NCBI GenBank assembly: GCA_040326155.1
Contig: JBEQLE010000029.1
Span: 1-40,160, forward strand
Reading direction: 5' to 3'
DNA: 40,160 bases
Source of the DNA: Leptospirales bacterium
Lineage (GTDB): Bacteria; Spirochaetota; Leptospiria; Turneriellales; JAOUFE01
Part shown: in pieces, positions 7,316 to 34,142 of the stretch
How the letters are laid out: each line of letters begins with the position of its first letter
Position numbering within the stretch: the stretch's first letter is position 1
Translations under genes and position numbers: made by a program
Notes under the pieces: generated by a model
The model's input: the letters and a program-made list of their open reading frames with translations, nothing else
The model's database searches: none
What the model was told of the DNA's origin: nothing

Positions 7316-8782
7316 TTATACCCACCAGGGAATATATTTCATATACTTTTTACTGGTCGTTGGATCAAAGGGTTTGATTTGTTCAGCTTGAGTTGTTTCT
7401 TTGATTACCCGAGATACCATAGCACTGTTTCTTTCCTCGATGCCAAAGCGTTCTCGAAGGGTGCTATTCGTCATATAATCTTTTTCGACATATCGTAAGC
7501 AAGAATGTAAATATGTTGCTCGTATTCGATCTTGCTTATCCATATGTTTATATTCTTTATGGGCAAACAACGTTGTGCGGGTATGGTTATTGGTTACCTC
7601 AAAAAGTGGAGCAGGAAGCTGATAATGTTCTGATTCAAATACTATCTTATCAATTCCGCTTCCTCGTTCTTCACAGACGCCGATTCTACGCATGAACGAT
7701 GCTAAAGCTTCATTTCTGGACTGAGGAGGGCTATCTAAAAATCTTTCGGTTTCAACGAGTGGTGTGCCAGGATTGGTTATTTCCATTCGATCATCAAATA
7801 TTTCGACCAAAATACCACTTCCAGTGACCTCAAAATCTTGATGGATAATTGCATTTGCAACGACCTCTCGGATAGCCAGTTCCGGGTACATTGGGACAGA
7901 TTTACGCAGAGCCTTTTCGATAACTTCATTCAATGGAAGTAACGTTTTTATGAAGTCGATTAAACCTTCAAAACCGCTGGCATAACCTTTTGCGCCTTCC
8001 CGTTCGCGTATCGTTTCAATTCTACCTTTGCCCCGGTAGACTACCACTCTAACGGCTTTTCGCTTTAGTATATCAAAATCGGATAATTTCTTGGCAAATA
8101 ATATAGCGCCCAAACTCATAATATTCCAAAGACCACTTTCCGATTTGGTAATCATCTTTTCAGCTAGTAAAGCTTCAAGTATTCCATCCTTGTTTGATGG
8201 GAGAGGAATATTCAGCAGATCGAAATAAGCTGGATAATTAAGATTTTTTAAAACCTCATCTGAGGATATGTTATCCACTGCGACTAAAGACTCATAGGGT
8301 GTTTTGTCAAAAATACGCCATAGTTCTCTTTCTTTTTCTGGGTATTCTTTAAGCTTCTTTTTGTAGGAACCAATTCGTATATATTCTTGATTTTTAAATT
8401 GTACCGGAGTTCTGATGGTTGCACTAATTTCCAAAAGCACAATATTTTTCTCTGCAATATTTATTTCAAAAAAGCTAAAATTGATTTTTGGGTTTAAAAG
8501 TTTCAATAACCAATTTTCTAACTCTTCGCTACCTTTTTTAGCTTTTGAAGGCTGAAAATCAGTACCGATAATGGAATGATCTGTGTCGTTAATGCCCCAT
8601 ACTAAATACGCATTAACTTTACCCAATAGTGATGCAGAGTTGGACAAGGCCGATATGTATTCTCCAATATCCTCAGGTACAGCTTTATTGTACTTAAACT
8701 CTACCCATTCAGTTTCATTTGGTAGCTTACACAATTCGTGAACAATGCTGAGCAAGTATTCCTGAGTTTTTTGAAGTGTCAT
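7316..8782 (-). CDS. Schlafen/AlbA_2 domain + HATPase_c_4 ('RecG C-terminal-like') + HTH protein (MloB-like)
   Basis: N-terminal ETEWVEFK...ISALSN...YLVWGIND (AlbA_2); AIREVVANAIIHQDF, RMEITNPG, SRNEALA, CEERGSGIDK (HATPase_c_4); C-terminal MTNSTLRERFG...VSRVIK (wHTH). Confidence 0.85.
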   Translation of the reverse strand: MTLQKTQEYLLSIVHELCKLPNETEWVEFKYNKAVPEDIGEYISALSNSASLLGKVNAYLVWGINDTDHSIIGTDFQPSKAKKGSEELENWLLKLLNPKINFSFFEINIAEKNIVLLEISATIRTPVQFKNQEYIRIGSYKKKLKEYPEKERELWRIFDKTPYESLVAVDNISSDEVLKNLNYPAYFDLLNIPLPSNKDGILEALLAEKMITKSESGLWNIMSLGAILFAKKLSDFDILKRKAVRVVVYRGKGRIETIREREGAKGYASGFEGLIDFIKTLLPLNEVIEKALRKSVPMYPELAIREVVANAIIHQDFEVTGSGILVEIFDDRMEITNPGTPLVETERFLDSPPQSRNEALASFMRRIGVCEERGSGIDKIVFESEHYQLPAPLFEVTNNHTRTTLFAHKEYKHMDKQDRIRATYLHSCLRYVEKDYMTNSTLRERFGIEERNSAMVSRVIKETTQAEQIKPFDPTTSKKYMKYIPWWV

Positions 8783-23112: not shown

Positions 23113-24337
23113 TGGTTTTGTCCAGGCCGAAAACTTGATGAAGAATTCTTAGTGCTCGTTCACCTTCTTTTTTTTCAATAACACAAGAGATCTTAATCTC
23201 GCTTGTGGCGATCATTTCAATGTTAATACCTTCCGAGGCAAACGCAGTGAACATTTTCGCAGCAATACCTTCGTGAGACTTCATGCCTACGCCGACTGCC
23301 GAAACAATGGAGATCTCTTCTTCAATCGACACAGTTCCGTCTCCCCAGCTTTTCACCAAAAGGTTGAGCTGGTTGGTCGCCGCTTCTAAATCACTTTTTA
23401 AAATGGTAAATGAAATTGTGTTCACTTTATTCTGGCCGGTCGACTGGACGATCATATCGACATTAATTTTACCTTTTGAGAGGGCGTCAAAAAGTTCCGC
23501 AGCAATTCCTGGACGGTCGGGAACATCCGATACACTGATTCTCGATTCATCGTCTTTAAGTGAAACTCCGGTAACTAATAATTTCTCCATAATTTGCTCC
23601 TCAGGTACAACTAATGTACCTTCTGTAAAATGAAAACTTGAGCGCACGTGAAGTATAACGCCATATTTTTTAGCAAACTCTACCGAGCGTGAATGTAAAA
23701 CACCAGTACCAAGAGAGGCCATCTCCAGCATTTCGTCGTAACTGATCTGTGACTTTTTTTTCGCTTCCGGTACTTTGTTTGGGTCGGCTGTATACACGCC
23801 GTCAACATCGGTATAAATTTCACATTGTTCTGCGTTCATCGACGCCGAAAGAGCTACAGCGGAAGTATCAGAACCGCCTCGTCCGAGTGTAGTAATATTT
23901 TGCTCCGGGTCTATCCCTTGAAAACCTGCAACAATACAAACGATATTATTGTTAAGGGCTTTTTCGAGTGTTTCCGTTTGAATTTTTGCAATTCGCGCAT
24001 TAGAGTGGTTTCCATCAGTAATAATACGAACCTGGGCGCCAGTAAAACTTTGTGCTTTTACCCCTATCGAGTGTAAAGCCATCGCTAATAGAGCAATGGA
24101 GACTTGTTCACCGGTAGATAATAGCATATCCATCTCTCGCTTATGCGGTGAAGCCGAGACCTCTTCGGACAGGCGAACGAGATTATTGGTAGATTTACCC
24201 ATCGCAGAAACGACTACAACAAGATGCTTGCCGCGTTCATGGTATCCTTTAATTCTTTCAGCGACATTTTTAATTCTGTTCGTATCGCCAACAGAAGAAC
24301 CTCCATATTTTTGCACAATTAGATCTTTCACAACCAA
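23099..24337 (-). CDS. lysC: Aspartate kinase
   Basis: [41 protein letters not shown], two ACT domains, TSEIKIS. Start is TTG 24337 or GTG 24331. Confidence 0.96.
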
Positions 24338-24603
24338 CTCTCTATGCTAACAATGAGATTCGAGACAAAGCGTCAATTCTTGTAAATAATCATTTGAAAG
24401 GGGGCGGATAAAGATCCTTCCGCTCGACTGGCGTTCTCGCTTAACCCCCCGGAACTGTTACCTGTAAACTTTTAACCTGATATTTTGCAGCCATACGATT
24501 GTTCGAAGCGGTCGAAAAAGGATCGGTTGGTAGAGAGCTATTTTAATTTGCTAAAACATACAATTGCAATATTTTAAATAAATTCAAATCTTACATAATT
24601 TTG

Positions 24604-24631
24604 TTGACAAAGAATAGGCACTAATTATACT
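24604..24631 (+). promoter_or_regulatory. Sigma70-type promoter of the SIR2-TIR/STAND operon
   Basis: TTGACA(24604-24609)-N16-TATACT(24626-24631), with an AT-rich upstream tract, about 60 nt before the GAGG RBS and ATG 24694. Confidence 0.7.
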
Positions 24632-24693
24632 GATGAAGTAGCAAACCGAACAAAATTGATAACTTATCATAAAATATTTACCCGAGGTTGTGT

Positions 24694-26088
24694 ATGAGTA
24701 AAGACAGTATTAACCAATGGGATGATGACTATTGGGATGAAATCGTTTTCAATATTGCAGAAGGGAATTGTATTTTGATGCTTGGACCTGACGCGTCGCT
24801 TGAAAAATCGGGTTCAAAAACCATACCGATTTCGAAGCTACTATCGCTGGAACTTGCGAAACAAAGTGTAATCAAAAGTACAATTCAAAAGTGGAAAATA
24901 AAACCTGACAATTTAACTCAGGTGTCTCTGGCATATACCCTGGAACGAAAAGCGGGAAAAAGCAAACTTTTGCAAAAAGTTCAGGCATTTTATAAAGAAC
25001 GCACAAATAATACAAATGAAGTTTACACCCACCTTGCAGAACTTCCCTTTCCTCTTACCGTCACCACCACACCCGACAAAATGTTTTCAAACTCTCTAAG
25101 AAAATCCGGTAAAAAACCATACGAAGAGTTTTATAATTATAAAGGTGAAGAAACCGATATTCCATATGATTATAGCGTAGAAAATCCGTTGGTGTATAAC
25201 CTGTATGGCAGCGTTGAAGATTCACATTCTTTAATTCTTACGGAAGATGATGTTCTTGATTTTCTGGTTTCTATAACCGATAAAACCCCATCTGTGCCAA
25301 GCGAAATTTTAACGGAACTCAGAAATAATGAAAAAACTATTTTATTTGTTGGCTTTGGTTTCGAAAACTGGTATTTGCGAATACTATTGAGAATACTGCA
25401 AATTGAAAATAAAGAGAGTCCTTCGTATGCACTCGAACATTTGAATTCAGATAATATTGATAATCTTCATAATATGATTATATATTACGGCCACAGTAAC
25501 TTTAAAATTCAAGTATGTAATTACGATATAAATAAATTTGCAATGGAGTTACAAAAAAGATTTGCCAAAGCTCACCCCGAAAAAATGGCCGGGTTTAAAT
25601 CGCCGGAAGAGGCTGAAGATATCGAACCGGTAAAAAAAAGGAAGTCGAAAGGCGCAATAAGCGCAAACGTATTTATCAGCTATGCCAGCGAAGATGAAAA
25701 AATTGCAAAAAAAGTTCACGACGAATTGAAAAAAGTCGGGGCGAACCCCTGGTGGGACAAGAAAAAACTCAGAGGTGGAGACGACTGGGATTCCATGATC
25801 GAAAGTCGCCTCGATGATGCTGATTACATGGTCCTTATTGTCAGTGATAATCTGCATAAAAAAATCGCCGATAAAAGTTATGTTGTAAAAGAGATTAATC
25901 AGGCTATAGATGGAAAGCAGCTGCAAACCATGGATCCAGAAAAGTTTATTATACCGGCTACTGTTAACGAGGCTAAACACCTTCCCTCTTTAAAAAAGAT
26001 ACAAGCGGTTGCTATTGGCGATGGCAAAGATGTAAAGTCTCTAATTTCAGTCATTACCGACGACATTAAACGGAGACAAAATGGTTGA
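24694..26088 (+). CDS. Degenerate SIR2-like (SIR2_2) domain fused to C-terminal TIR domain
   Basis: Sirtuin-like Rossmann motifs LMLGPD, VTTTPD, YNLYGS, LILTEDD..DFL, LFVGFGF..W.LR.L. TIR motifs VFISYASED, PWWDKKKLRGGDDW, YVVKEINQA, FIIP. Confidence 0.85.
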   Translation: MSKDSINQWDDDYWDEIVFNIAEGNCILMLGPDASLEKSGSKTIPISKLLSLELAKQSVIKSTIQKWKIKPDNLTQVSLAYTLERKAGKSKLLQKVQAFYKERTNNTNEVYTHLAELPFPLTVTTTPDKMFSNSLRKSGKKPYEEFYNYKGEETDIPYDYSVENPLVYNLYGSVEDSHSLILTEDDVLDFLVSITDKTPSVPSEILTELRNNEKTILFVGFGFENWYLRILLRILQIENKESPSYALEHLNSDNIDNLHNMIIYYGHSNFKIQVCNYDINKFAMELQKRFAKAHPEKMAGFKSPEEAEDIEPVKKRKSKGAISANVFISYASEDEKIAKKVHDELKKVGANPWWDKKKLRGGDDWDSMIESRLDDADYMVLIVSDNLHKKIADKSYVVKEINQAIDGKQLQTMDPEKFIIPATVNEAKHLPSLKKIQAVAIGDGKDVKSLISVITDDIKRRQNG

Positions 26089-29000
26089 ACCGAATAACAT
26101 AGAAAAGCATTTTCGCTACCGGGGGCCGTTGCCTTATCAGGATCGTGAAGTGGACCGATCTATGTTTTTTGGCCGTGAGCGCGAAACAAAAAAATTGCTC
26201 AGCCTTGTCTTATCGGAACGACTGACTGTTCTTTTTGCAAAATCGGGTCTGGGTAAAACTTCTTTAATAAACGCCGGGCTAATGGACACCTTGCGTAGTA
26301 AAAAATACTTTCCCGTACGTGTTACATTCAACGCTGAAAAGATTGGTTTAACAGAGTCGGTATTGCAGGCTATAGAAGAAAAAGCATTGCAAACCGGTGT
26401 TAAAATAAAGTCCCCCAAAAAAGCTGACCGAACAAACCTCTGGAGTTATTTTGCCCATACGGAGTTTTTGTTTGAGAAAAAAAAAGTTACCCCGCTTCTA
26501 ATACTCGACCAATTTGAAGAAATTTTCACATTGTATACAAGAGAACAGACCGGGCAATTTATTGAGCAAATTGCTCCCATTATACGCAACATAGCGCCAG
26601 AACGCTCTTCAAAGGGGAAGCGAAAAAGCTCTACTGACGCTTATGCAAAAATTAAAATTAAAATTTTAATTGGAATTCGCGAAGATTATTTAGCCGAGCT
26701 TGAAGGTATTGCAAAAAAGGTTCCTCAAATATTGCGAAACCGTTACCGACTGCTACCTTTGAATCGAATTAGCGCGAAAATGGCCATTGAAAACCCCGTT
26801 GAAAAAGAGGGTAATTTTTACTCACGCACTTCCAAATACTCGCCAGAGGCGATAGATAAAATTCTGAATTTTTTAAGCGCTGGTGACCCGCAAGACGAAG
26901 AGACCCGAGATGAAGATACAACCATTGAACCGGCCCAGTTGCAGTTGGTATGCCAGAGCATTGAAAACCAAATTATTGAACGCGACGAAAACGAAAATAA
27001 TATTATCAGTAAAGAGGATCTTGGCGGTACAAAGGGGCTGCAAAAAATCATTAAGAGTTATTATAATAACAAAATCAATAAAATAACACCCAGCAGCGAA
27101 AGGTCCAAAGCCAGAAAACTTTTTAAAAAAGGGCTAATCAGCAGCAAGAATAACCGGGTGAGCCTGGCCGCTTCCACCATTATCGACTCTTACCGACTTT
27201 CGGAAGCAACTTTGGAAAAGCTGGTTGATGCGAGACTGCTTCGTTCTGAATCACGAAATAAGATAACCTACTATGAAATACCACACGATACGTTGGTCGG
27301 CCCCATTCGCCAGCTGCAAAAAGAGAGAGACCTTATTATATTTCCAATTTATATCGCTATACCGGTGGTCTTAATGCTTTCGGTGGGTGTACTTAAAGGT
27401 CCGTTAATGGCATTCTTTTATGAATTTGAAATGGATAAAGCATTAATTGATTGTTGTGTTGAAGGAGTGATACTACCAGGAAAAATGAAAAATGGGGAAA
27501 CTATAAGTGGAAGGAAAATTAAACGAAAAAAATACGATGATTTTATTGAATCAGCGATTAATGCAGATAGGGGTGATAAAGTTCTTGAAGAGTACAATGA
27601 TTTAATAAATATGAAAGGTTTAATCGAACAAGTCGAGTGGGTTTTTAACTTTACTAAATTCTCAATTATATCAAGAGGCGATACCGAATTACTCAGCAAA
27701 ATTCGTGAGATTACGGCAGATCACTATGTGGAGAATCCTACAAAAGGCAATCCAATATTCTTATATCAATTAGCTAAAGAATTACATGATAATGAACAAT
27801 TTGAAAAAGCAAGGGAAGTATTCCTATTAGTACTTGAATCAAAAAGTGGGTTTGATACGAATTATTTGTATGCAGAAGCAAATTATTTTCTTGGTGATAT
27901 GTTAGCTATAGATGGGAAATGCAATGCGGCAAAAGCATATTTTGACAAGGTCAACCAGTTAAATAATGCAACTGGACGCGATACCGAATTAATTCATACA
28001 AAATGTTTGGAAACAAAACAAGAAAGGTCAGAAACCTATGTGGAAAAAAAGAAAGACGTGGAACTGGGAGTTGAACCTATTGAGATAAAGCCGCCTGAAG
28101 AAGTGTTGCTTGAAAACAAGGGTATTGAACACGCTGTAGAACTGATGCATAACGGGGAGCTTAATGAAGCAATAGATGAGTTTAAAAAATATATCAAGGA
28201 GAATTCTGACTCGGCCTGGGGGCATTATTATCTTGGTGCTCTTGCTGGTAATGATGGAGAGTATAAAAAAGCAATCGTGTATTTGAATACGGCGATTCAG
28301 ATTATGAATAAAGATCCTAAACAGGAAATTGATGATACAATTGCTAGAAAAAGAAGGGCGTATTATTATTTAAAGGATGAAAATTATCATAGAGCCATTA
28401 AAGACTATAAAATACTGTTAAAGAAATACCCTTTGGTTGGTGTGCAATATGCAGTACAGATTGCATATTGTTATGAGAGACTGGGTGAGAGGAAAAAAGC
28501 TATTCCATATTATGATCAGGCTATATCAATGGACAAACACAACCCTCAAACATATTACAAGCATGCCCGTCTTTCGCGTCAATTGGGATATCGAAAAGAT
28601 GCTACATATAATTATAAAAAAGCAATTGAAATTAAACCTGACTACTTTGAAGCAGTTTTTGAATTGGCGGAAATATACCGGGACAATGCAAATTTTACCA
28701 ACGCTATAAAGTATTACAAACTTGCTTACGATATAGAAAATAAATTATTTTTGAAATCTCGTCTTGCAGAAATGCACCGTTTGTATGCAAGAGAGTTGTA
28801 TGTAAAAATGGAATACAACGATGCTCGTACTCATTATGAAAAGGCTTTGAAGTATTATCGGTACGATAAACCATCACTTGATGGGTTGGCGGCTATGCAT
28901 TATGAAGGAAAAGATACCAGTCAGAGTTATGAAGAAGCATTTAAATTATATTCTAGATCGGCAGACCTGGGCAGTTCCACCGGCCAATATTACCTGGGTA

Positions 29001-29206
29001 TAATGTACTTGAATGGGTGGGGAACAAGTAAATCTTTAAAGCTTGCTCATGAATATTTCTCTAGAGCGGCGAAGCAGGGGCATAAAGAAGCCGCCAAAAA
29101 AAGGGATGAAGTTAAAAGCAAACTTGATAAACAAGAACGGCAAAAAAAGACCGGAGAAAATTCAGGTAATCTCGAGCTAGAAGGTGTTGGCGGCGCGGCT
29201 CCGTAA
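26081..29206 (+). CDS. nSTAND1-type P-loop NTPase with transmembrane helix, TPR array and Sel1 repeats
   Basis: FFGRERE, Walker A AKSGLGKTSL, Walker B LILDQFEEIF, LIGIREDYL, LQLVC, YEIPHDTL; TM segment LIIFPIYIAIPVVLMLSVGVL; multiple TPRs; Sel1 repeats (GQYYLGIMYLNGWG...AAKQG). Confidence 0.88.
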   Translation: MVEPNNIEKHFRYRGPLPYQDREVDRSMFFGRERETKKLLSLVLSERLTVLFAKSGLGKTSLINAGLMDTLRSKKYFPVRVTFNAEKIGLTESVLQAIEEKALQTGVKIKSPKKADRTNLWSYFAHTEFLFEKKKVTPLLILDQFEEIFTLYTREQTGQFIEQIAPIIRNIAPERSSKGKRKSSTDAYAKIKIKILIGIREDYLAELEGIAKKVPQILRNRYRLLPLNRISAKMAIENPVEKEGNFYSRTSKYSPEAIDKILNFLSAGDPQDEETRDEDTTIEPAQLQLVCQSIENQIIERDENENNIISKEDLGGTKGLQKIIKSYYNNKINKITPSSERSKARKLFKKGLISSKNNRVSLAASTIIDSYRLSEATLEKLVDARLLRSESRNKITYYEIPHDTLVGPIRQLQKERDLIIFPIYIAIPVVLMLSVGVLKGPLMAFFYEFEMDKALIDCCVEGVILPGKMKNGETISGRKIKRKKYDDFIESAINADRGDKVLEEYNDLINMKGLIEQVEWVFNFTKFSIISRGDTELLSKIREITADHYVENPTKGNPIFLYQLAKELHDNEQFEKAREVFLLVLESKSGFDTNYLYAEANYFLGDMLAIDGKCNAAKAYFDKVNQLNNATGRDTELIHTKCLETKQERSETYVEKKKDVELGVEPIEIKPPEEVLLENKGIEHAVELMHNGELNEAIDEFKKYIKENSDSAWGHYYLGALAGNDGEYKKAIVYLNTAIQIMNKDPKQEIDDTIARKRRAYYYLKDENYHRAIKDYKILLKKYPLVGVQYAVQIAYCYERLGERKKAIPYYDQAISMDKHNPQTYYKHARLSRQLGYRKDATYNYKKAIEIKPDYFEAVFELAEIYRDNANFTNAIKYYKLAYDIENKLFLKSRLAEMHRLYARELYVKMEYNDARTHYEKALKYYRYDKPSLDGLAAMHYEGKDTSQSYEEAFKLYSRSADLGSSTGQYYLGIMYLNGWGTSKSLKLAHEYFSRAAKQGHKEAAKKRDEVKSKLDKQERQKKTGENSGNLELEGVGGAAP

Positions 29207-29375
29207 TGTTGCTAATGTTCCGTTAAAGAGATACTCTCAGGAATCGCTTTAGAATCTTTCGCTAGTCAACCGCAGTTCAATTTTCTGCATTTGAATAAAA
29301 CCTCTCGTTTTTAGCTTGGCAGCTGATAATCGTTGTTAAGTATCGCTTTATCTGCGAAATTTTTCTGGTAAAAAT

Positions 29376-31790
29376 ATGAGTAAGCGAAATATTTACAAAT
29401 TATCTCTGGTTGCCTTTTGGGCTTCCTTATTGGTTTCTATTATGTTTACTTCGTCTGGGGTTTTTGCCGCTACAGTAACTTTATCGGGTACAATTACAGA
29501 AGCTTCGACAGGTAAACCCATTGAGTTTGCCTCTATCGCTATTTTAGAGTTGAAAAAGAAAATTCTGAGTGATGAAAATGGTAAATACAAAGTCTCTTTG
29601 TCAACCGGCAATTATACCCTCATTATCAGCGCTTCGGGGTATAAAACCCAGAAACATGCAATAAAAATCAGTAAAAGCGTCACGGCAGATTTTTCTCTCT
29701 CTCTACCGATCGTTTCGGGAAACGCCCTTTCCATTGAAGCCGAACGCGATGTCCAGAAAATATCTCGATATTCTATGAGTAAAGAAGAGATTAAAAATGT
29801 CCCGGCTACTCTGGGCGACTCCTTTGGGGCAGTCAGTTCTATGGCGGGTATTGAGAGGTCGGGGTTTCTTGGTCCTCTTTCTATACGCGGGCTTGGTGAC
29901 TTTGCAAACCGGTATTATATTGATGGGGTATTGATACGAAAACCCCAACATTTCGGCGGGTTTCACAGTATCATTCATAACGAATTTATATCCGAAATTG
30001 ATATCTTTTCTTCTTCGTTTCCTTTGAATTATGGTTATGCGGTAGGTTCCATTATCGAAATTAATACTATTGATGAAGTGAAAAAAACATATGGGTTTGG
30101 CGACATTGGAATTTTATCCGCAAATTTCATGGTGGGAACACCGCTTTATAAAATGCAGGCAGGCGAAAAAAAAGTCAATGGATATATATTGGTGGGAGCT
30201 AGATACGGTTATTTAACTCTGATCGCCCCTTATATTATAAAAGCAACGGTTGGCGACACTGTAAATATAGATACCAGCTACTATGATTACCAGTTTAAAG
30301 GAAAATATTTTCTAAACAAAAATAACTCACTGACCATATTGCTTTTTGGAGGCGCAGACCGGTACACACTTGATCGTAATCTCTCGAGTCGAACGACCCA
30401 GAATATGATTTCGAAGGGAGCGGACCCCTACCGATTGGCATACGCGTTGCATACGGATTCAAAATTTCATTCCCAGTCGTTGCTTTATACTTATATGCCT
30501 TCTTACATGTTTTCGAATGAAGCTCGTTTTTATACATCGTTAAACGATGTTGAAAGACGTCGCACGATAGACGACACAAATGTGGTCTCCTGGGCCAGAA
30601 ATATCAATCTTACATCGCGGCCCAATATATATGGCTTGCGAGACGACCTCAAGTATCAGACGAAAAAAAAGACATTCTCTGTAAAGCTTGGCCTGGACAT
30701 GGCCCTTTACCATTACGTAGCTTCCGGGAAAAATATTTACCCTAAAACCACTTCAAATGGCCAGTCTCCGGATTATTCTGACCCGGATGCTTTTGTAGTA
30801 AAAAATATTCACCAGGATGCGCGGAACTATACTATTGGAAATTACATTGAAACCAAGTTAACATTAGACGCTTTTGAACTCGCCCTGGGTTTGCGAAGTG
30901 ATTACCTTACAAACCAGGAATATTTTGTATGGGACCCGCGTGGGATAGTGAGTTATACGTTTCCCTGGCAAACAACTATTTCGGCAGCCGGCGGGGGTTA
31001 TAGCGCATTTTACCAGACAAATTTTGATAATCTGGAACGCTCTCCCGATGTTATTAAAGCTGACGCAAAACCGGAGAGGGCCTGGCACCGAGCCGTTGGA
31101 ATTGAACAAAAAATTGGTAAAATACTATCTTTTAAAGTCGAGGGGTATTATAATAATTTTTATCAACTTACGGAACCTGGTTATGACCCCGCAGGAAAAA
31201 GTAAAACATTTACAAACAGTGTCGGGGAAAGAAAAACCTATGGGGTTGAATTTACGCAAAAATTTATGTTTAAAAAAGGAGATTTTAGTTTTCTAAACTG
31301 GTTGAGCTATACTTATGGTAAATCGGAACATAAATCGAACCTCTCTGCGGCTCTAGATCCGTATGGGGACAAATGGTTGAACGGAGAAAATGACAGAAGG
31401 CACTCTTTTAAAATGGTCACAGGTGCTACGTTTGGCAAACATATGCTGGGGACTCGCTTTCAGTATTACACATCGAACCCCTTTACCCCGATTGTTGGCG
31501 ACGATAATGACCCTGGCGGTATTGGAAGATATGGCCCGTTATACGGAAAATCTTATTCAAAATACAGTGAACCGGACCACCGTCTTGATATACGCTATAG
31601 TTATGATACGGCGCGCAAATGGGGTCGTCTAAGATGGTATGTAGAAGCCATAAATGTATTAAATATAAAGCCCAAAGATCGAGAAAATTGGAAATATAAC
31701 AAAAAGTATAAGAAAGGGGTTAACCCGGTGCGGGGAACAACTGCCATTCTCGGGTTTGCCCCGAACTTTGGCCTGGAGATCAGTTTTTAG
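29376..31790 (+). CDS. TonB-dependent outer-membrane receptor with N-terminal carboxypeptidase-regulatory-like domain
   Basis: Signal peptide, LSGTITEASTGKPIEFA...DENGKY, plug motifs (LSIRG...YYIDGV...H), beta-barrel strands, C-terminal Phe (GLEISF). Confidence 0.92.
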   Translation: MSKRNIYKLSLVAFWASLLVSIMFTSSGVFAATVTLSGTITEASTGKPIEFASIAILELKKKILSDENGKYKVSLSTGNYTLIISASGYKTQKHAIKISKSVTADFSLSLPIVSGNALSIEAERDVQKISRYSMSKEEIKNVPATLGDSFGAVSSMAGIERSGFLGPLSIRGLGDFANRYYIDGVLIRKPQHFGGFHSIIHNEFISEIDIFSSSFPLNYGYAVGSIIEINTIDEVKKTYGFGDIGILSANFMVGTPLYKMQAGEKKVNGYILVGARYGYLTLIAPYIIKATVGDTVNIDTSYYDYQFKGKYFLNKNNSLTILLFGGADRYTLDRNLSSRTTQNMISKGADPYRLAYALHTDSKFHSQSLLYTYMPSYMFSNEARFYTSLNDVERRRTIDDTNVVSWARNINLTSRPNIYGLRDDLKYQTKKKTFSVKLGLDMALYHYVASGKNIYPKTTSNGQSPDYSDPDAFVVKNIHQDARNYTIGNYIETKLTLDAFELALGLRSDYLTNQEYFVWDPRGIVSYTFPWQTTISAAGGGYSAFYQTNFDNLERSPDVIKADAKPERAWHRAVGIEQKIGKILSFKVEGYYNNFYQLTEPGYDPAGKSKTFTNSVGERKTYGVEFTQKFMFKKGDFSFLNWLSYTYGKSEHKSNLSAALDPYGDKWLNGENDRRHSFKMVTGATFGKHMLGTRFQYYTSNPFTPIVGDDNDPGGIGRYGPLYGKSYSKYSEPDHRLDIRYSYDTARKWGRLRWYVEAINVLNIKPKDRENWKYNKKYKKGVNPVRGTTAILGFAPNFGLEISF

Positions 31791-31847
31791 GCTATTTTAT
31801 CTAATTTTGTAAACAAAGAAAAACTAAAGAAAAACAAGGAAATTATA

Positions 31848-32603
31848 ATGAAAAAATTTAAAATAAAACTCGCATGTGTTTTGGTGGCTACTTTTTTATT
31901 TTCGCCAACCGTTTTTGCCCAGACCGGGACTCCAGAAAATCCCGCCGTACCTGAAGAAGTAAAAACAGAAGAAGCAGCAAAGCCTGGTAATGTTGCAGAA
32001 AATGAACAACCGGAAAATCTTGACAATCCTGAAGCTGAAGAGGAGAAAAACGATAATCTGTTTTCTACAGTTCGTAGAGGGGGATGGGTGATGATACCCG
32101 TTCTCGGACTTTTACTTCTTGGAATGACCTTCATTGTTGATCGGGCCATCTATTTTTATAAACACAAAGTCTGGAAAATTCAGGTATTTGAGGAATTTTT
32201 AAAAGATAAATCTAAGAATTGCAAGTCTAAGTACAAAGAAGAACTTGAAAATGAACTTCGCGATATCTCTCAAATTTATATTAACAACCTCGAAAAAGGG
32301 TTAAACCTGATACACGGCATTGGAAACCTCTCCCCCTTGCTGGGTTTTTTTGGAACGGTAATCGGTATGATCGACGCCTTTGCGGCAATTGCCGCTGCGG
32401 CAACTGTAAATGCAAAAGTTGTGGCTCAGGGAATTGAAATTGCTCTGGTTACCACCGCCGGTGGACTCGCAGTTGCCGTCCCCATGCTTGCTTTTTATTA
32501 TATATTTTCCCATTTTGTGCAAACTCATTACAACGCAGCAGACAGGGTAATTAGTGAGTTGACAACCGTTGCTCCCTCTTTTTCGCAAATGAACCAATCG
32601 TAA
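31848..32603 (+). CDS. exbB: MotA/TolQ/ExbB proton channel
   Basis: SPLLGFFGTVIGMI, GIEIALVTTAGGLAVAVP; signal peptide and acidic linker. Confidence 0.93.
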   Translation: MKKFKIKLACVLVATFLFSPTVFAQTGTPENPAVPEEVKTEEAAKPGNVAENEQPENLDNPEAEEEKNDNLFSTVRRGGWVMIPVLGLLLLGMTFIVDRAIYFYKHKVWKIQVFEEFLKDKSKNCKSKYKEELENELRDISQIYINNLEKGLNLIHGIGNLSPLLGFFGTVIGMIDAFAAIAAAATVNAKVVAQGIEIALVTTAGGLAVAVPMLAFYYIFSHFVQTHYNAADRVISELTTVAPSFSQMNQS

Positions 32604-32651
32604 TAGGGTGATGCAAGTTATATTTGTGGTTTTTATTATGGATTCTATGAA

Positions 32652-33080
32652 ATGAGTCAATATCCTTTTAAAAGAAAGAGAGCCTTTCGTAAAACTACGG
32701 AAGCAACCGTTGACTCTTCGGCGATTGGAGATATGGCTTTTCTGCTTTTGATATTTTTTATTGTCACCAGTTCGTTTTTAATTAAGCAGGGTTTTTTTCT
32801 CTCATTGCCTTCAAAAGACGGAGGGGCAATTAAGGTAGAAGAAGAAAAGCTTTTTGAAATTGAACCGACAGATGAGGCATATGTTTATGAAAGCCGTACA
32901 ATAAATGAAAAAAAACTGCGGTTGTTTATTGAACAAAAACAAGAAACCACAGAGGAGTTGATTCTCATTATTTATATGAACCCGGATGTCAAGTACTCAC
33001 GACTAATTGATACCTTAAGTATTGCCCGCGATTTTGGTATAATGAAAATATCCATAAAAGATACGGAGGAAAAATCCTGA
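32652..33080 (+). CDS. exbD: Biopolymer transporter ExbD
   Basis: GDMAFLLLIFFIVTS TM with conserved Asp; LSLP; 'VKYSRLIDTLS' C-terminal. Confidence 0.9.
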   Translation: MSQYPFKRKRAFRKTTEATVDSSAIGDMAFLLLIFFIVTSSFLIKQGFFLSLPSKDGGAIKVEEEKLFEIEPTDEAYVYESRTINEKKLRLFIEQKQETTEELILIIYMNPDVKYSRLIDTLSIARDFGIMKISIKDTEEKS

Positions 33081-33490
33081 TGAGGCGACAACGTAACCGG
33101 AATTGGCTGCGTTCTATTTCATCGGGGGCGGCGATGGCCGATCTGGCCCTATTGCTAATGGTGTTTTTTATGACGACAACCGTTACCGACCCACCACGTT
33201 CGTTTGAACTGGAACCTCCGAGCGGTAATGTAGAACCAGCCGAACAACAAAATATTAAAATTAGTATTGATCGGTATGGAGTTTATTACTTGAATGGCGA
33301 ACGTCGAGAGTTAGAAGAAATATACAATTTTCTTGTTTCTCGATCATATGAGAAAGATACACCTGTTACCATAACTGCCGATAAAAATTTAAAATATTCT
33401 ATTATTTCGGCTCTGACCGGTACTTTGCAAGATGCAGATTTTCTGAATTTTACATTTATAGCTGAAGAGAAGACTCCGCAAAACAACTAA
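33080..33490 (+). CDS. exbD: Biopolymer transporter ExbD (second copy)
   Basis: ADLALLLMVFFMTTT; ITADKNLKY; TGATG stop/start overlap with the first exbD. Confidence 0.9.
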   Translation: MRRQRNRNWLRSISSGAAMADLALLLMVFFMTTTVTDPPRSFELEPPSGNVEPAEQQNIKISIDRYGVYYLNGERRELEEIYNFLVSRSYEKDTPVTITADKNLKYSIISALTGTLQDADFLNFTFIAEEKTPQNN

Positions 33491-33491
33491 A

Positions 33492-34142
33492 ATGAAAAAG
33501 GTTCAAAATAAATTTCTAAAAAAAGTTATTGAAATTGCGAAAATAATAGTTTCCTATTTAAATGAACGTTACAATAAGAGACCGTATACATTCTCTTTTG
33601 TTGCATCTTTGCTCGTAATAACATTTACACTTTTTTTCTCGCCTTATCGCGGTCTTCATACTCCCGACGACATAATCGATATTTTTGAATTGATTAATGT
33701 AGATAAAATATCTTTGCCGAAAAGAAAAGTAAAAAAGGACATTGACCCTGATTCACAGACCGAAAATGAGGACCCCGATGTTGAAAGGGCGGAAGGTCAA
33801 ATTGATGACGCCCTCGACCTCTCTTTTTACCCCGATATAATTCCCCCTCGCCCCATTGGAGCGTTGAAAAAAATATACCCCGAAAGTGCCCGACAGATGG
33901 ATGTGGAAGCGGTGGTTTTTGTCTCTGTTGCCATTAGTCAGTCGGGTAAGGTTCTTGCGGTCAAAGTTCTCGTTGTAAAATTAAGTAAGTCCTTACCACC
34001 TGAGCTTGAAAAAAGTCTTAAAGCTGACTTTACCCGTGACGCTATCGCTATATTGTCTCAAGTCCGTTTTACATCTACACTGTATGAAGGAAAAAAAATA
34101 TCTGTCATTAAAGAGTTCCCATTTCAGTTTAAGCTCAAGTAA
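33492..34142 (+). CDS. tonB: Energy transducer TonB
   Basis: Single N-terminal TM, charged linker, TonB_C motif 'YPESARQMDVEAVVFVSVAISQSGKV...FKLK'; operon context. Confidence 0.8.
   Translation: MKKVQNKFLKKVIEIAKIIVSYLNERYNKRPYTFSFVASLLVITFTLFFSPYRGLHTPDDIIDIFELINVDKISLPKRKVKKDIDPDSQTENEDPDVERAEGQIDDALDLSFYPDIIPPRPIGALKKIYPESARQMDVEAVVFVSVAISQSGKVLAVKVLVVKLSKSLPPELEKSLKADFTRDAIAILSQVRFTSTLYEGKKISVIKEFPFQFKLK

Follow-up and report, generated by a model that had tools for sequence, protein, structure and literature searches.

A candidate NLR-like two-gene module: a SIR2-like–TIR protein and an nSTAND1 NTPase with a predicted membrane helix in a Leptospirales genome

Introduction

The nSTAND1 NTPases were named by Kaur, Iyer, Burroughs, and Aravind (eLife 2021; PMC8195603), and in passages of that paper they are presented as one NTPase option of the STAND-FGS systems, which carry N-terminal EADs or effectors. 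Parts of other sources raise the prospect of recognition at or beyond a membrane: "receptor-like" type-II single-pass TIR-ParA systems with predicted periplasm sensing (bioRxiv 10.64898/2026.10.19.760177), periplasmic sensor domains predicted for some STAND targets diversified by diversity-generating retroelements (PNAS 2024), and NACHT proteins whose transmembrane regions may allow them to sense membrane or periplasmic signals (Kibby et al.). Here, we describe a two-gene module from a Leptospirales bacterium (GenBank assembly GCA_040326155.1). It lies in a stretch of 40,160 nt, positions 1 to 40,160 of contig JBEQLE010000029.1, which was analyzed as a whole and which we refer to as the window. 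Gene 1 encodes a SIR2-like domain followed by a TIR domain, and gene 2 encodes an nSTAND1 NTPase, one strongly hydrophobic segment, and a long array of helical repeats (Table 1).

In animals, Toll-like receptors have an ectodomain of repeats and one membrane helix, and their clustering drives TIR signaling in the cytoplasm; NLRs depend on NTPase-driven oligomerization. To our knowledge, the characterized bacterial STAND/NLR-like defenses sense invader proteins in the cytoplasm. The gene pair described below is a real feature and is best filed as a variant of STAND/TIR immunity, the function of which we infer, with a split effector, a sirtuin-derived domain that appears to be a pseudoenzyme and to serve in coupling, and a predicted membrane helix.

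The two genes are kept together

A first-pass annotation, made by a model from the letters of the window without database searches, had proposed that the two genes form one module, and the conservation of their adjacency agrees with this from both sides. In a scan of species-representative genomes seeded by gene 1 (with a query built from 12 closer sequences), an nSTAND1 gene lies directly downstream on the same strand in 23 of 27 loci; of the other four, two lie at contig ends, one has a truncated gene 1, and one has a gene 1 fused to ParA. The reciprocal scan of metagenomes was seeded by gene 2 and covered the best 80 of 439 relatives, that is, the clade closest to the gene 2 NTPase and not all nSTAND1 proteins. 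A SIR2-like gene is found directly upstream in 73 of these 80 loci; in five of the other seven, the DNA upstream is shorter than 250 nt. The commonest junction between the two genes in the metagenome loci is a 4-base overlap (21 of 66), and related loci as a rule show an overlap or a gap of only a few bases. There are also fused forms with the same domain order as the two-gene form, namely P0102 (SIR2_2-TIR_2-nSTAND1 followed by multiple transmembrane segments) and the similar P0343. The identities of gene 1 and of the NTPase covary (r = 0.94 across 986 locus pairs).

Adjacency that is preserved whichever gene is used as the starting point, together with the fused forms, strongly supports a functional link between gene 1 and gene 2, and the pairing is near-obligate. 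No third gene recurs within 6 kb on either side in the 27 genome loci, in which only the two genes and antisense shadow open reading frames cluster. A complex prediction for the NTPase (aa 1-415) with gene 1, made without controls, gave a score of 0.02 against a mark of 0.32 and counts neither way.

One further locus holds what looks like a decayed remnant of gene 1 (L025:5950-6789). It retains the SIR2-like part only (profile positions 1-266), and no nSTAND1 gene is present within 6 kb.

Gene 1 combines a putative sirtuin pseudoenzyme with a TIR domain

Gene 1 encodes a cytoplasmic protein with a SIR2 fold (residue numbers for this gene, including T128, Y173, E402, and the domain ranges, count from the TTG at 24688). 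Pfam SIR2_2 matches aa 124-248 (E = 4.6e-12), and the AlphaFold2 model (mean predicted local distance difference test [pLDDT] 87.4) is matched by Foldseek to ThsA, the SIR2-STAND protein Avs5, KomC, DSR2, SPARSA, and SIR2/HerA. The Foldseek probability is 1.00 for ThsA, KomC, DSR2, and Avs5, with ThsA as the best structural match.

The fold is present, but the catalytic Asn, the catalytic His, and the GAG nucleotide-binding loop are not. The position of the Asn was set with two chains of BcThsA, the wild-type 6lhx (TTNYD) and the deposited mutant 8bto (TTAYD; N112A), and that of the His with two chains of KomC, 8zsf with His and 9xvc (titled H146N) with Asn. In an alignment of 35 family members, the Asn is restored in none, and the His position is occupied by Y, F, or L and never by H. 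Given that the loop, the Asn, and the His are all replaced, in gene 1 and across the family, the SIR2-like domain is predicted to be a catalytically dead pseudoenzyme, and we place it outside the active SIR2 NADase family.

The TIR domain (Pfam TIR_2, aa 328-445, E = 1e-20) looks live. The family profile aligns E402 with the Glu of the WTNYEL motif in AbTIR, which we take to be the catalytic Glu of that protein. By the same profile, the closest solved TIRs are chains of AbTIR, SPARTA TIR-APAZ, and SARM1, which are NADases dependent on assembly. Possession of a TIR domain with a conserved putative catalytic Glu suggests that gene 1 encodes a putative NADase. The first-pass description of gene 1, as an inactive sirtuin-like fold followed by TIR, is thus matched by the SIR2_2 and TIR_2 hits together with T128, Y173, and the GPD loop.

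The SIR2-like domain is the constant partner

Comparison of the partner proteins indicates that the SIR2-like domain is the constant partner of the NTPase and that the TIR or EAD module is variable. Of the metagenome partners, 43 align to the TIR end, and in 23 the match to the family profile stops short. Pfam was run on 21 of these 23. A weaker TIR_2 match is seen in four, EAD11 follows the SIR2-like domain in seven (L106, L113, L124, L125, L130, L131, and L138), and EAD1 precedes it in one (L115); the remainder have no other domain. The EAD11 arrangement is also found as a single fused protein with nSTAND1, SIR2_2, and EAD11 (P0352), and in a cultured, harmless species, Haliscomenobacter hydrossis DSM 1100, on plasmid pHALHY02 (L149; NC_015512.1:732-7709). 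In the latter case, a SIR2-like–EAD11 gene (356 aa) overlaps by four bases with the gene for an nSTAND1 protein (550 aa), and two separate WD40 genes follow, as if the sensor had been split off. Some gene 1 relatives have N-terminal CHAT or ParA-like additions (CHAT fusions are P0185 and P0267). A domain of P0195, listed by one source as a KGGVGR-motif variant AAA ATPase, is here taken to be ParA-like.

Two partners are standalone proteins of ∼290 aa (L143:2599-3477 and L095:1137-2006) that have neither TIR nor EAD and that keep LGAGA, TTNYD, and HG. They are the only two partners with an intact GAG loop, Asn, and His, and by these motifs they look like active sirtuins, whereas the glycine loop of the TIR- or EAD-bearing partners mostly reads LGP(D/E)x and the catalytic His is missing from every one of them. 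The two standalone proteins may represent the ancestral active-effector state of the dyad. The simplest reading of this pattern suggests that an ancestral SIR2 effector partner turned into a pseudoenzyme adaptor once another output module had become attached.

Gene 2 and the likely topology of its product

The NTPase of gene 2 is intact, both by profile (Pfam nSTAND1, PF20703, aa 13-406, 111 bits against a cut-off of 27.1, E = 1.3e-31) and by its Walker A (GLGKTS) and Walker B (LDQFEE) motifs, which do not vary over 30 aligned sequences. A conserved YE..HDTL..PI motif ends about nine residues before a stretch of 21 uncharged residues (aa 418-438), which is the sole strongly hydrophobic segment of the protein (the next Kyte-Doolittle peak is 1.27). 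In the AlphaFold2 model (mean pLDDT 77.7), residues 403-438 form a single unbroken helix, followed by a linker and then by helical repeats up to residue 1024. Pfam assigns TPR families at about aa 560-930 and Sel1 repeats, the best stretch being 968-1001. Foldseek with the whole gene 2 model returned TPR proteins only and is uninformative on the nearest solved NTPase. The nSTAND1-type NTPase followed by TPR and Sel1 repeats that had been read from the letters of the window is therefore borne out by Pfam, and the one strong transmembrane helix, put at about 27330-27395, is recovered at nt 27332-27394.

No hydrophobic or signal peptide-like segment lies ahead of the NTPase, so on this reading it must be cytoplasmic. 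With a large N-terminal ATPase in the cytoplasm and one spanning helix, the repeats would lie outside. Most relatives have such a helix behind the NTPase: it is seen in 61 of the 71 metagenome relatives that could be assessed, at residues 380-500 in 76 of the 119 database homologues listed, and in 16 of the 22 genome-locus partners long enough to judge. Across the family, the 15-aa flanks of the helix hold on average 5.5 Lys plus Arg on the N side versus 3.2 on the C side, and N > C in 52 of 60; because the sequences are related, the Wilcoxon test (p = 2e-7) overstates the significance.

The domains that follow the helix in relatives also bear on topology. Some work outside the cytoplasm, namely CarboxypepD_reg with TonB_C, DUF642, muramidase with PG_binding_1, and RoxA-like cytochrome c; other relatives have FGE-sulfatase, WD40, RHS, or ankyrin with Sel1. 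The host is diderm, and the window holds a TonB/ExbBD cluster and a TonB-dependent-receptor-like gene. Overall, gene 2 most likely encodes a type-II single-pass membrane protein (N-in, C-out) with a periplasmic repeat domain, an orientation that is supported rather than proven. The first-pass suggestion that the sensor faces the periplasm has gained from the family-wide positive-inside bias and from the extracytoplasmic-type domains of relatives, and it stays a prediction.

Distribution and evolution

Close locus pairs differ in how their parts diverge. Identities for gene 1, the NTPase, and the post-helix region are 93%, 91%, and 34% in L117/L135; 81%, 78%, and 40% in L109/L123; and 90%, 91%, and 67% in L081/L082 (the post-helix values are rough; repeat proteins align poorly). 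By these comparisons, the post-helix region appears to diverge far faster than the NTPase.

The gene 1 family comprises 278 cluster representatives at E ≤ 1e-30, and homologues from the 27 genome loci fall in about a dozen major lineages, as judged from record titles. Its distribution is patchy. At E ≤ 1e-20, there is no gene 1 match in 40 relatives of the host (three of the same family, 30 of the same order, and seven of the same class). In a sample of 201 genomes from a different phylum, that of one homologue-bearing genome, four have gene 1 matches, the seed genome included. The LepA-racemase-aspartokinase synteny beside the module is kept in the three same-family relatives examined, all of which are without the module. 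A clean insertion site was sought and proved not to be definable; the far side differs.

The same genome carries a second, paralogous SIR2-like–TIR plus nSTAND1-transmembrane module on a separate contig (G000:C33:31581-34882; loci L002, L036, and L037). Gene 1 of this second module shares 40% identity with the gene 1 described here. The accompanying nSTAND1 protein is 656 aa long and includes a helix at 428-446, the N flank of which is strongly basic. The C-terminal region of that protein is different, shorter, and helical, and it has no Pfam match. The paralogous module is flanked by acyltransferase and RND efflux genes. A CHAT (caspase-like) protein of 652 aa is encoded ∼5 kb away (L037:15731-17689, − strand; G000:C33 ∼39731-41689). 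Elsewhere in the genome, a third TIR_2 match lies within an 875-aa open frame (G000:C149:64323-64646), and several very long open reading frames (∼1700 aa) on G000:C149 and C127 give weak P-loop matches to nSTAND1 and may encode further STAND-type proteins.

Layout, expression signals, and neighborhood

The module consists of two + strand open reading frames, 24688 (TTG) or 24694 (ATG) to 26088 (466 or 464 aa) and 26081-29206 (1041 aa). The true start of gene 1 is probably the ATG, given the GAGG that precedes it by 6 nt. An 8-bp overlap of the two frames and a near-consensus promoter of the module's own had both been claimed in the first-pass annotation. The overlap is exact, and the promoter stands as a consensus match at 11 of 12 positions, the top-scoring of 25 promoter-like sites in 24300-29450. 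Weak sites are common, with 16.0 ± 4.6 in shuffled sequence, and the assignment is a match to consensus only. No + strand terminator-like site was found between the two genes or 3′ of gene 2, no Rfam family in the intergenic region upstream of the module, and no tRNA in the window.

Table 1. Features of the gene pair, in window coordinates
Feature	Position	Strand	Remarks
Promoter-like TTGACA-16 nt-TATACT	24604..24631	+	11/12 match; consensus match only
GAGG, putative ribosome-binding site of gene 1	24684..24687	+	6 nt before ATG 24694; read from sequence
Gene 1: SIR2-like putative pseudoenzyme domain + TIR	24694..26088	+	464 aa from ATG; open reading frame opens at TTG 24688
SIR2-like domain, defense-type sirtuin fold	24724..25596	+	aa 13-303; Pfam SIR2_2, Foldseek
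G33-P34-D35 where GAG nucleotide-binding loop expected	24784..24792	+	gene 1 reads LGPDA
T128 at catalytic Asn position	25069..25071	+	aligned with N112 of BcThsA
Y173 at catalytic His position	25204..25206	+	aligned with H146 of KomC
TIR domain	25663..26085	+	aa 326-466; Pfam TIR_2
E402, putative catalytic Glu of TIR	25891..25893	+	invariant in 35/35 sequences
GGAG, putative ribosome-binding site of gene 2, within 3′ end of gene 1	26072..26075	+	5 nt before ATG; read from sequence
8-bp overlap, gene 2 start/gene 1 stop	26081..26088	+	ATG 26081-26083, TGA 26086-26088
Gene 2: nSTAND1 NTPase, predicted transmembrane helix, TPR/Sel1 repeat domain	26081..29206	+	1041 aa
nSTAND1 NTPase module	26117..27298	+	aa 13-406; PF20703
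P-loop AKSGLGKTS	26237..26263	+	aa 53-61; G56, G58, K59, S61 invariant in 30 sequences
Walker B LLILDQFEE	26495..26521	+	aa 139-147; D143, Q144, F145, E146, E147 invariant
YE..HDTL..PI motif just ahead of membrane helix	27272..27307	+	aa 398-409; Y398, E399, H402, D403, I409 invariant
Predicted transmembrane helix	27332..27394	+	aa 418-438; Kyte-Doolittle 2.51 over 19 aa
Low-confidence linker	27395..27508	+	aa 439-476; pLDDT <50 at aa 441-480
All-helical TPR/Sel1 repeat domain, putative extracytoplasmic sensor	27509..29152	+	aa 477-1024; Pfam, AlphaFold2 model

Directly 3′ of the module, at 29376-34142 of the window (+ strand), are a CarboxypepD_reg TonB-dependent-receptor-like gene and an ExbB-ExbD-ExbD-TonB cluster. 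One gene 2 relative (L021) has CarboxypepD_reg and TonB_C after its helix, and this resemblance to the cluster beside the module may be coincidence. A protein with Schlafen AlbA_2 and HATPase_c_4 domains, a combination frequent in defense contexts, is encoded 16 kb upstream (7316-8782, − strand).

Proposed function and alternatives

We hold, with middling confidence, that the pair is an NLR-like conflict module, probably directed against phages or other invaders, and that it works as follows. The fast-evolving TPR/Sel1 domain, in the periplasm, would bind an envelope-side cue such as an invader component or a sign of envelope damage. Ligand-driven clustering would be relayed by the helix, which is continuous with the last conserved NTPase motif in the model, and would lead to NTP-dependent oligomerization of the nSTAND1 modules. 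The dead SIR2-like domain would serve as adaptor, keeping the TIR attached to the NTPase, such that oligomerization would gather the TIR domains and switch on NAD+ cleavage. Depletion of NAD+, possibly together with ADP-ribose-derived products, would then cause growth arrest or cell death.

A stronger version, which we put forward tentatively and regard as somewhat doubtful, is that of an outside-in innate immune receptor, in which an invader would be recognized at the envelope by the periplasmic repeat domain, as its genome enters the cell or earlier. The signal would pass along the membrane helix to an NLR-type ATPase, which would employ a sirtuin pseudoenzyme as its dedicated adaptor in assembling TIR NADases. 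If this is true, sirtuin pseudoenzymes would be a new class of adaptor alongside the Death-like EADs, and the system would be, functionally, a hybrid of Toll-like receptor and NLR.

Several points weigh against the conflict-module interpretation or its membrane component. Function, ligand, and topology are all inferred. The tracking of identity between gene 1 and the NTPase is expected of any co-inherited operon and is no proof of contact. Both copies of the module sit amid housekeeping genes, with no recognizable defense island; a search of phage records and viral contigs turned up no relative, and only one, the EAD11 variant of pHALHY02, is on a plasmid. No PADLOC system model matches gene 2. 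With regard to the membrane, the flank charges of gene 2 itself are near balanced (three K/R before the helix and two after), so the topology argument is carried by the relatives and by the logic of a single helix. In addition, the helix is absent in 10 of 71 relatives, and membrane insertion is therefore not essential to the core mechanism. It should be noted that TPR, Sel1, ankyrin, and WD40 repeats are common in the cytoplasm too.

One alternative, which we consider unlikely, is that the module is not antiviral and serves as an envelope-surveillance, kin-recognition, or developmental cell-death switch, as proposed for multicellular or aggregating bacteria. Passages of Kaur et al. 2020 and 2021 tie related systems to a multicellular habit, and the housekeeping flanks at both copies and the lack of a phage-borne copy among those found point the same way. 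Extreme patchiness, a fast-diverging sensor, duplication as a paralogue, and exchangeable effector or EAD modules are what immune loci typically show, yet these traits are compatible with such a switch as well, since it would share the mechanism and differ in its trigger alone.

About as improbable is a second possibility, in which the TIR would be a ThsB-like signal generator, producing an ADP-ribose-derived messenger for a receptor-effector encoded at another, unlinked place in the genome. TIR domains do produce signals in Thoeris, and PADLOC ThsB models give weak matches to the TIR of gene 1. Against this, the genome loci hold no recurrent third gene within 6 kb, a YpsA-type SLOG was not found in the genome, and the best TIR profile matches are TIRs of NADase type.

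Least probable of all is that the helix does no more than anchor the protein at the membrane's inner face or mediate oligomerization while a cytoplasmic TPR/Sel1 domain senses an intracellular invader protein, as in Avs: the characterized STAND-TPR sensors are cytoplasmic, some relatives do without the helix, and the flank bias of gene 2 is weak, but a segment of 21 uncharged residues at Kyte-Doolittle 2.51, modeled within one long helix, the positive-inside bias of the family, and relatives with TonB_C, peptidoglycan-binding/muramidase, or cytochrome c domains after the helix argue otherwise.

If the sensor of this widespread clade does lie beyond the membrane helix, bacteria could couple envelope-side recognition to TIR-mediated destruction of NAD+. 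Animal Toll-like receptors follow such a logic, with recognition at the surface and TIR signaling inside. The module would also be a clean case of an enzyme turned adaptor, with the sirtuin apparently intact in two standalone partners and apparently dead wherever a TIR or EAD is attached. The small size of the two genes suits them to heterologous tests.

Comparison with known systems

The module has what defines an nSTAND1 conflict system sensu Kaur 2021 (PMC8195603), namely, an nSTAND1 NTPase, a C-terminal sensor that varies, and an effector or EAD gene that lies next to the NTPase gene or is fused to it, and passages of that paper describe systems alike in all three respects. In the same passages the lectin sensors (FGS, NPCBM) are treated as intracellular; a periplasmic nSTAND1 sensor is not mentioned in those passages of the main text, nor do the searched portions of the text contain the reading of a dead SIR2 as adaptor or the TIR/EAD11 swap. 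Supplement file 1 of the paper has "nSTAND1+TM" 461 times, "nSTAND1+TM+TPR" 23 times, and "TIR+DrHyd" 103 times, the last largely as "TIR+DrHyd-> nSTAND1+TM+TPR/BetaPropeller". The upstream partner is not labeled SIR2 there, and none of the eight "sir2" entries in the file is a partner of nSTAND1+TM genes. Nearly every clade member that we examined has a SIR2-like partner, and for this reason the "TIR+DrHyd" gene is probably a gene 1-type protein under another label. The Haliscomenobacter accessions are absent from supplement file 1, and none of the four gene 1-bearing genomes of the 201-genome sample was matched to a row of the supplement.

The first-pass annotation had stated that nSTAND1 with inactive sirtuin partners was noted in computational surveys; portions of Kaur et al. 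2020, Kaur et al. 2021, and the 2026 ParA preprint did not confirm this precedent. It had also known of no experimental characterization of the architecture, and our literature search, with subscription journals mostly outside its reach, likewise found no experimental work on the SIR2-like–TIR/nSTAND1-transmembrane dyad.

Among defense systems, Avs likewise joins a STAND NTPase to a repeat sensor and to an effector of SIR2 or TIR type. Chains of Avs5 (SIR2-STAND; PDB 9jap and 9nc9) are among the matches of the gene 1 model, and the fused P0102 and P0343 share the Avs-like order of effector and then NTPase. The module differs in the clade of its NTPase, which is nSTAND1, in being split over two genes where Avs has effector and receptor on one chain, and in its apparently dead SIR2, added TIR, and predicted membrane helix between NTPase and sensor. 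With no PADLOC Avs match for gene 2, it does not belong to Avs/AVAST.

Thoeris (ThsA with SIR2-SLOG and ThsB with TIR) likewise combines SIR2 and TIR, and, as noted above, ThsA is nearest to gene 1 in structure. However, the module has SIR2-like and TIR domains on one chain, lacks the GAG loop, Asn, and His as well as SLOG, and has a STAND NTPase as partner. The PADLOC ThsA/ThsB and NCBIfam matches are domain-level and far below cut-offs, and we do not assign it to Thoeris.

The TIR-ParA systems, as described in parts of the preprint (bioRxiv 10.64898/2026.10.19.760177), are similar in layout, with a constant cytoplasmic N-terminal NTPase, a variable extracellular sensor, and an upstream TIR gene. 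Their NTPase is ParA, not nSTAND1, and the partner TIR-FC is described there without a SIR2-like domain.

The likeness to Toll-like receptors and NLRs is one of analogy. The module resembles them in its repeat domain, which would be the ectodomain, in its single predicted helix, and in TIR signaling, and its NTPase-driven oligomerization would be like that of NLRs; we claim no homology of the ectodomains. It differs in that its TIR is on a separate chain and that an NTPase would stand between the membrane and the TIR.

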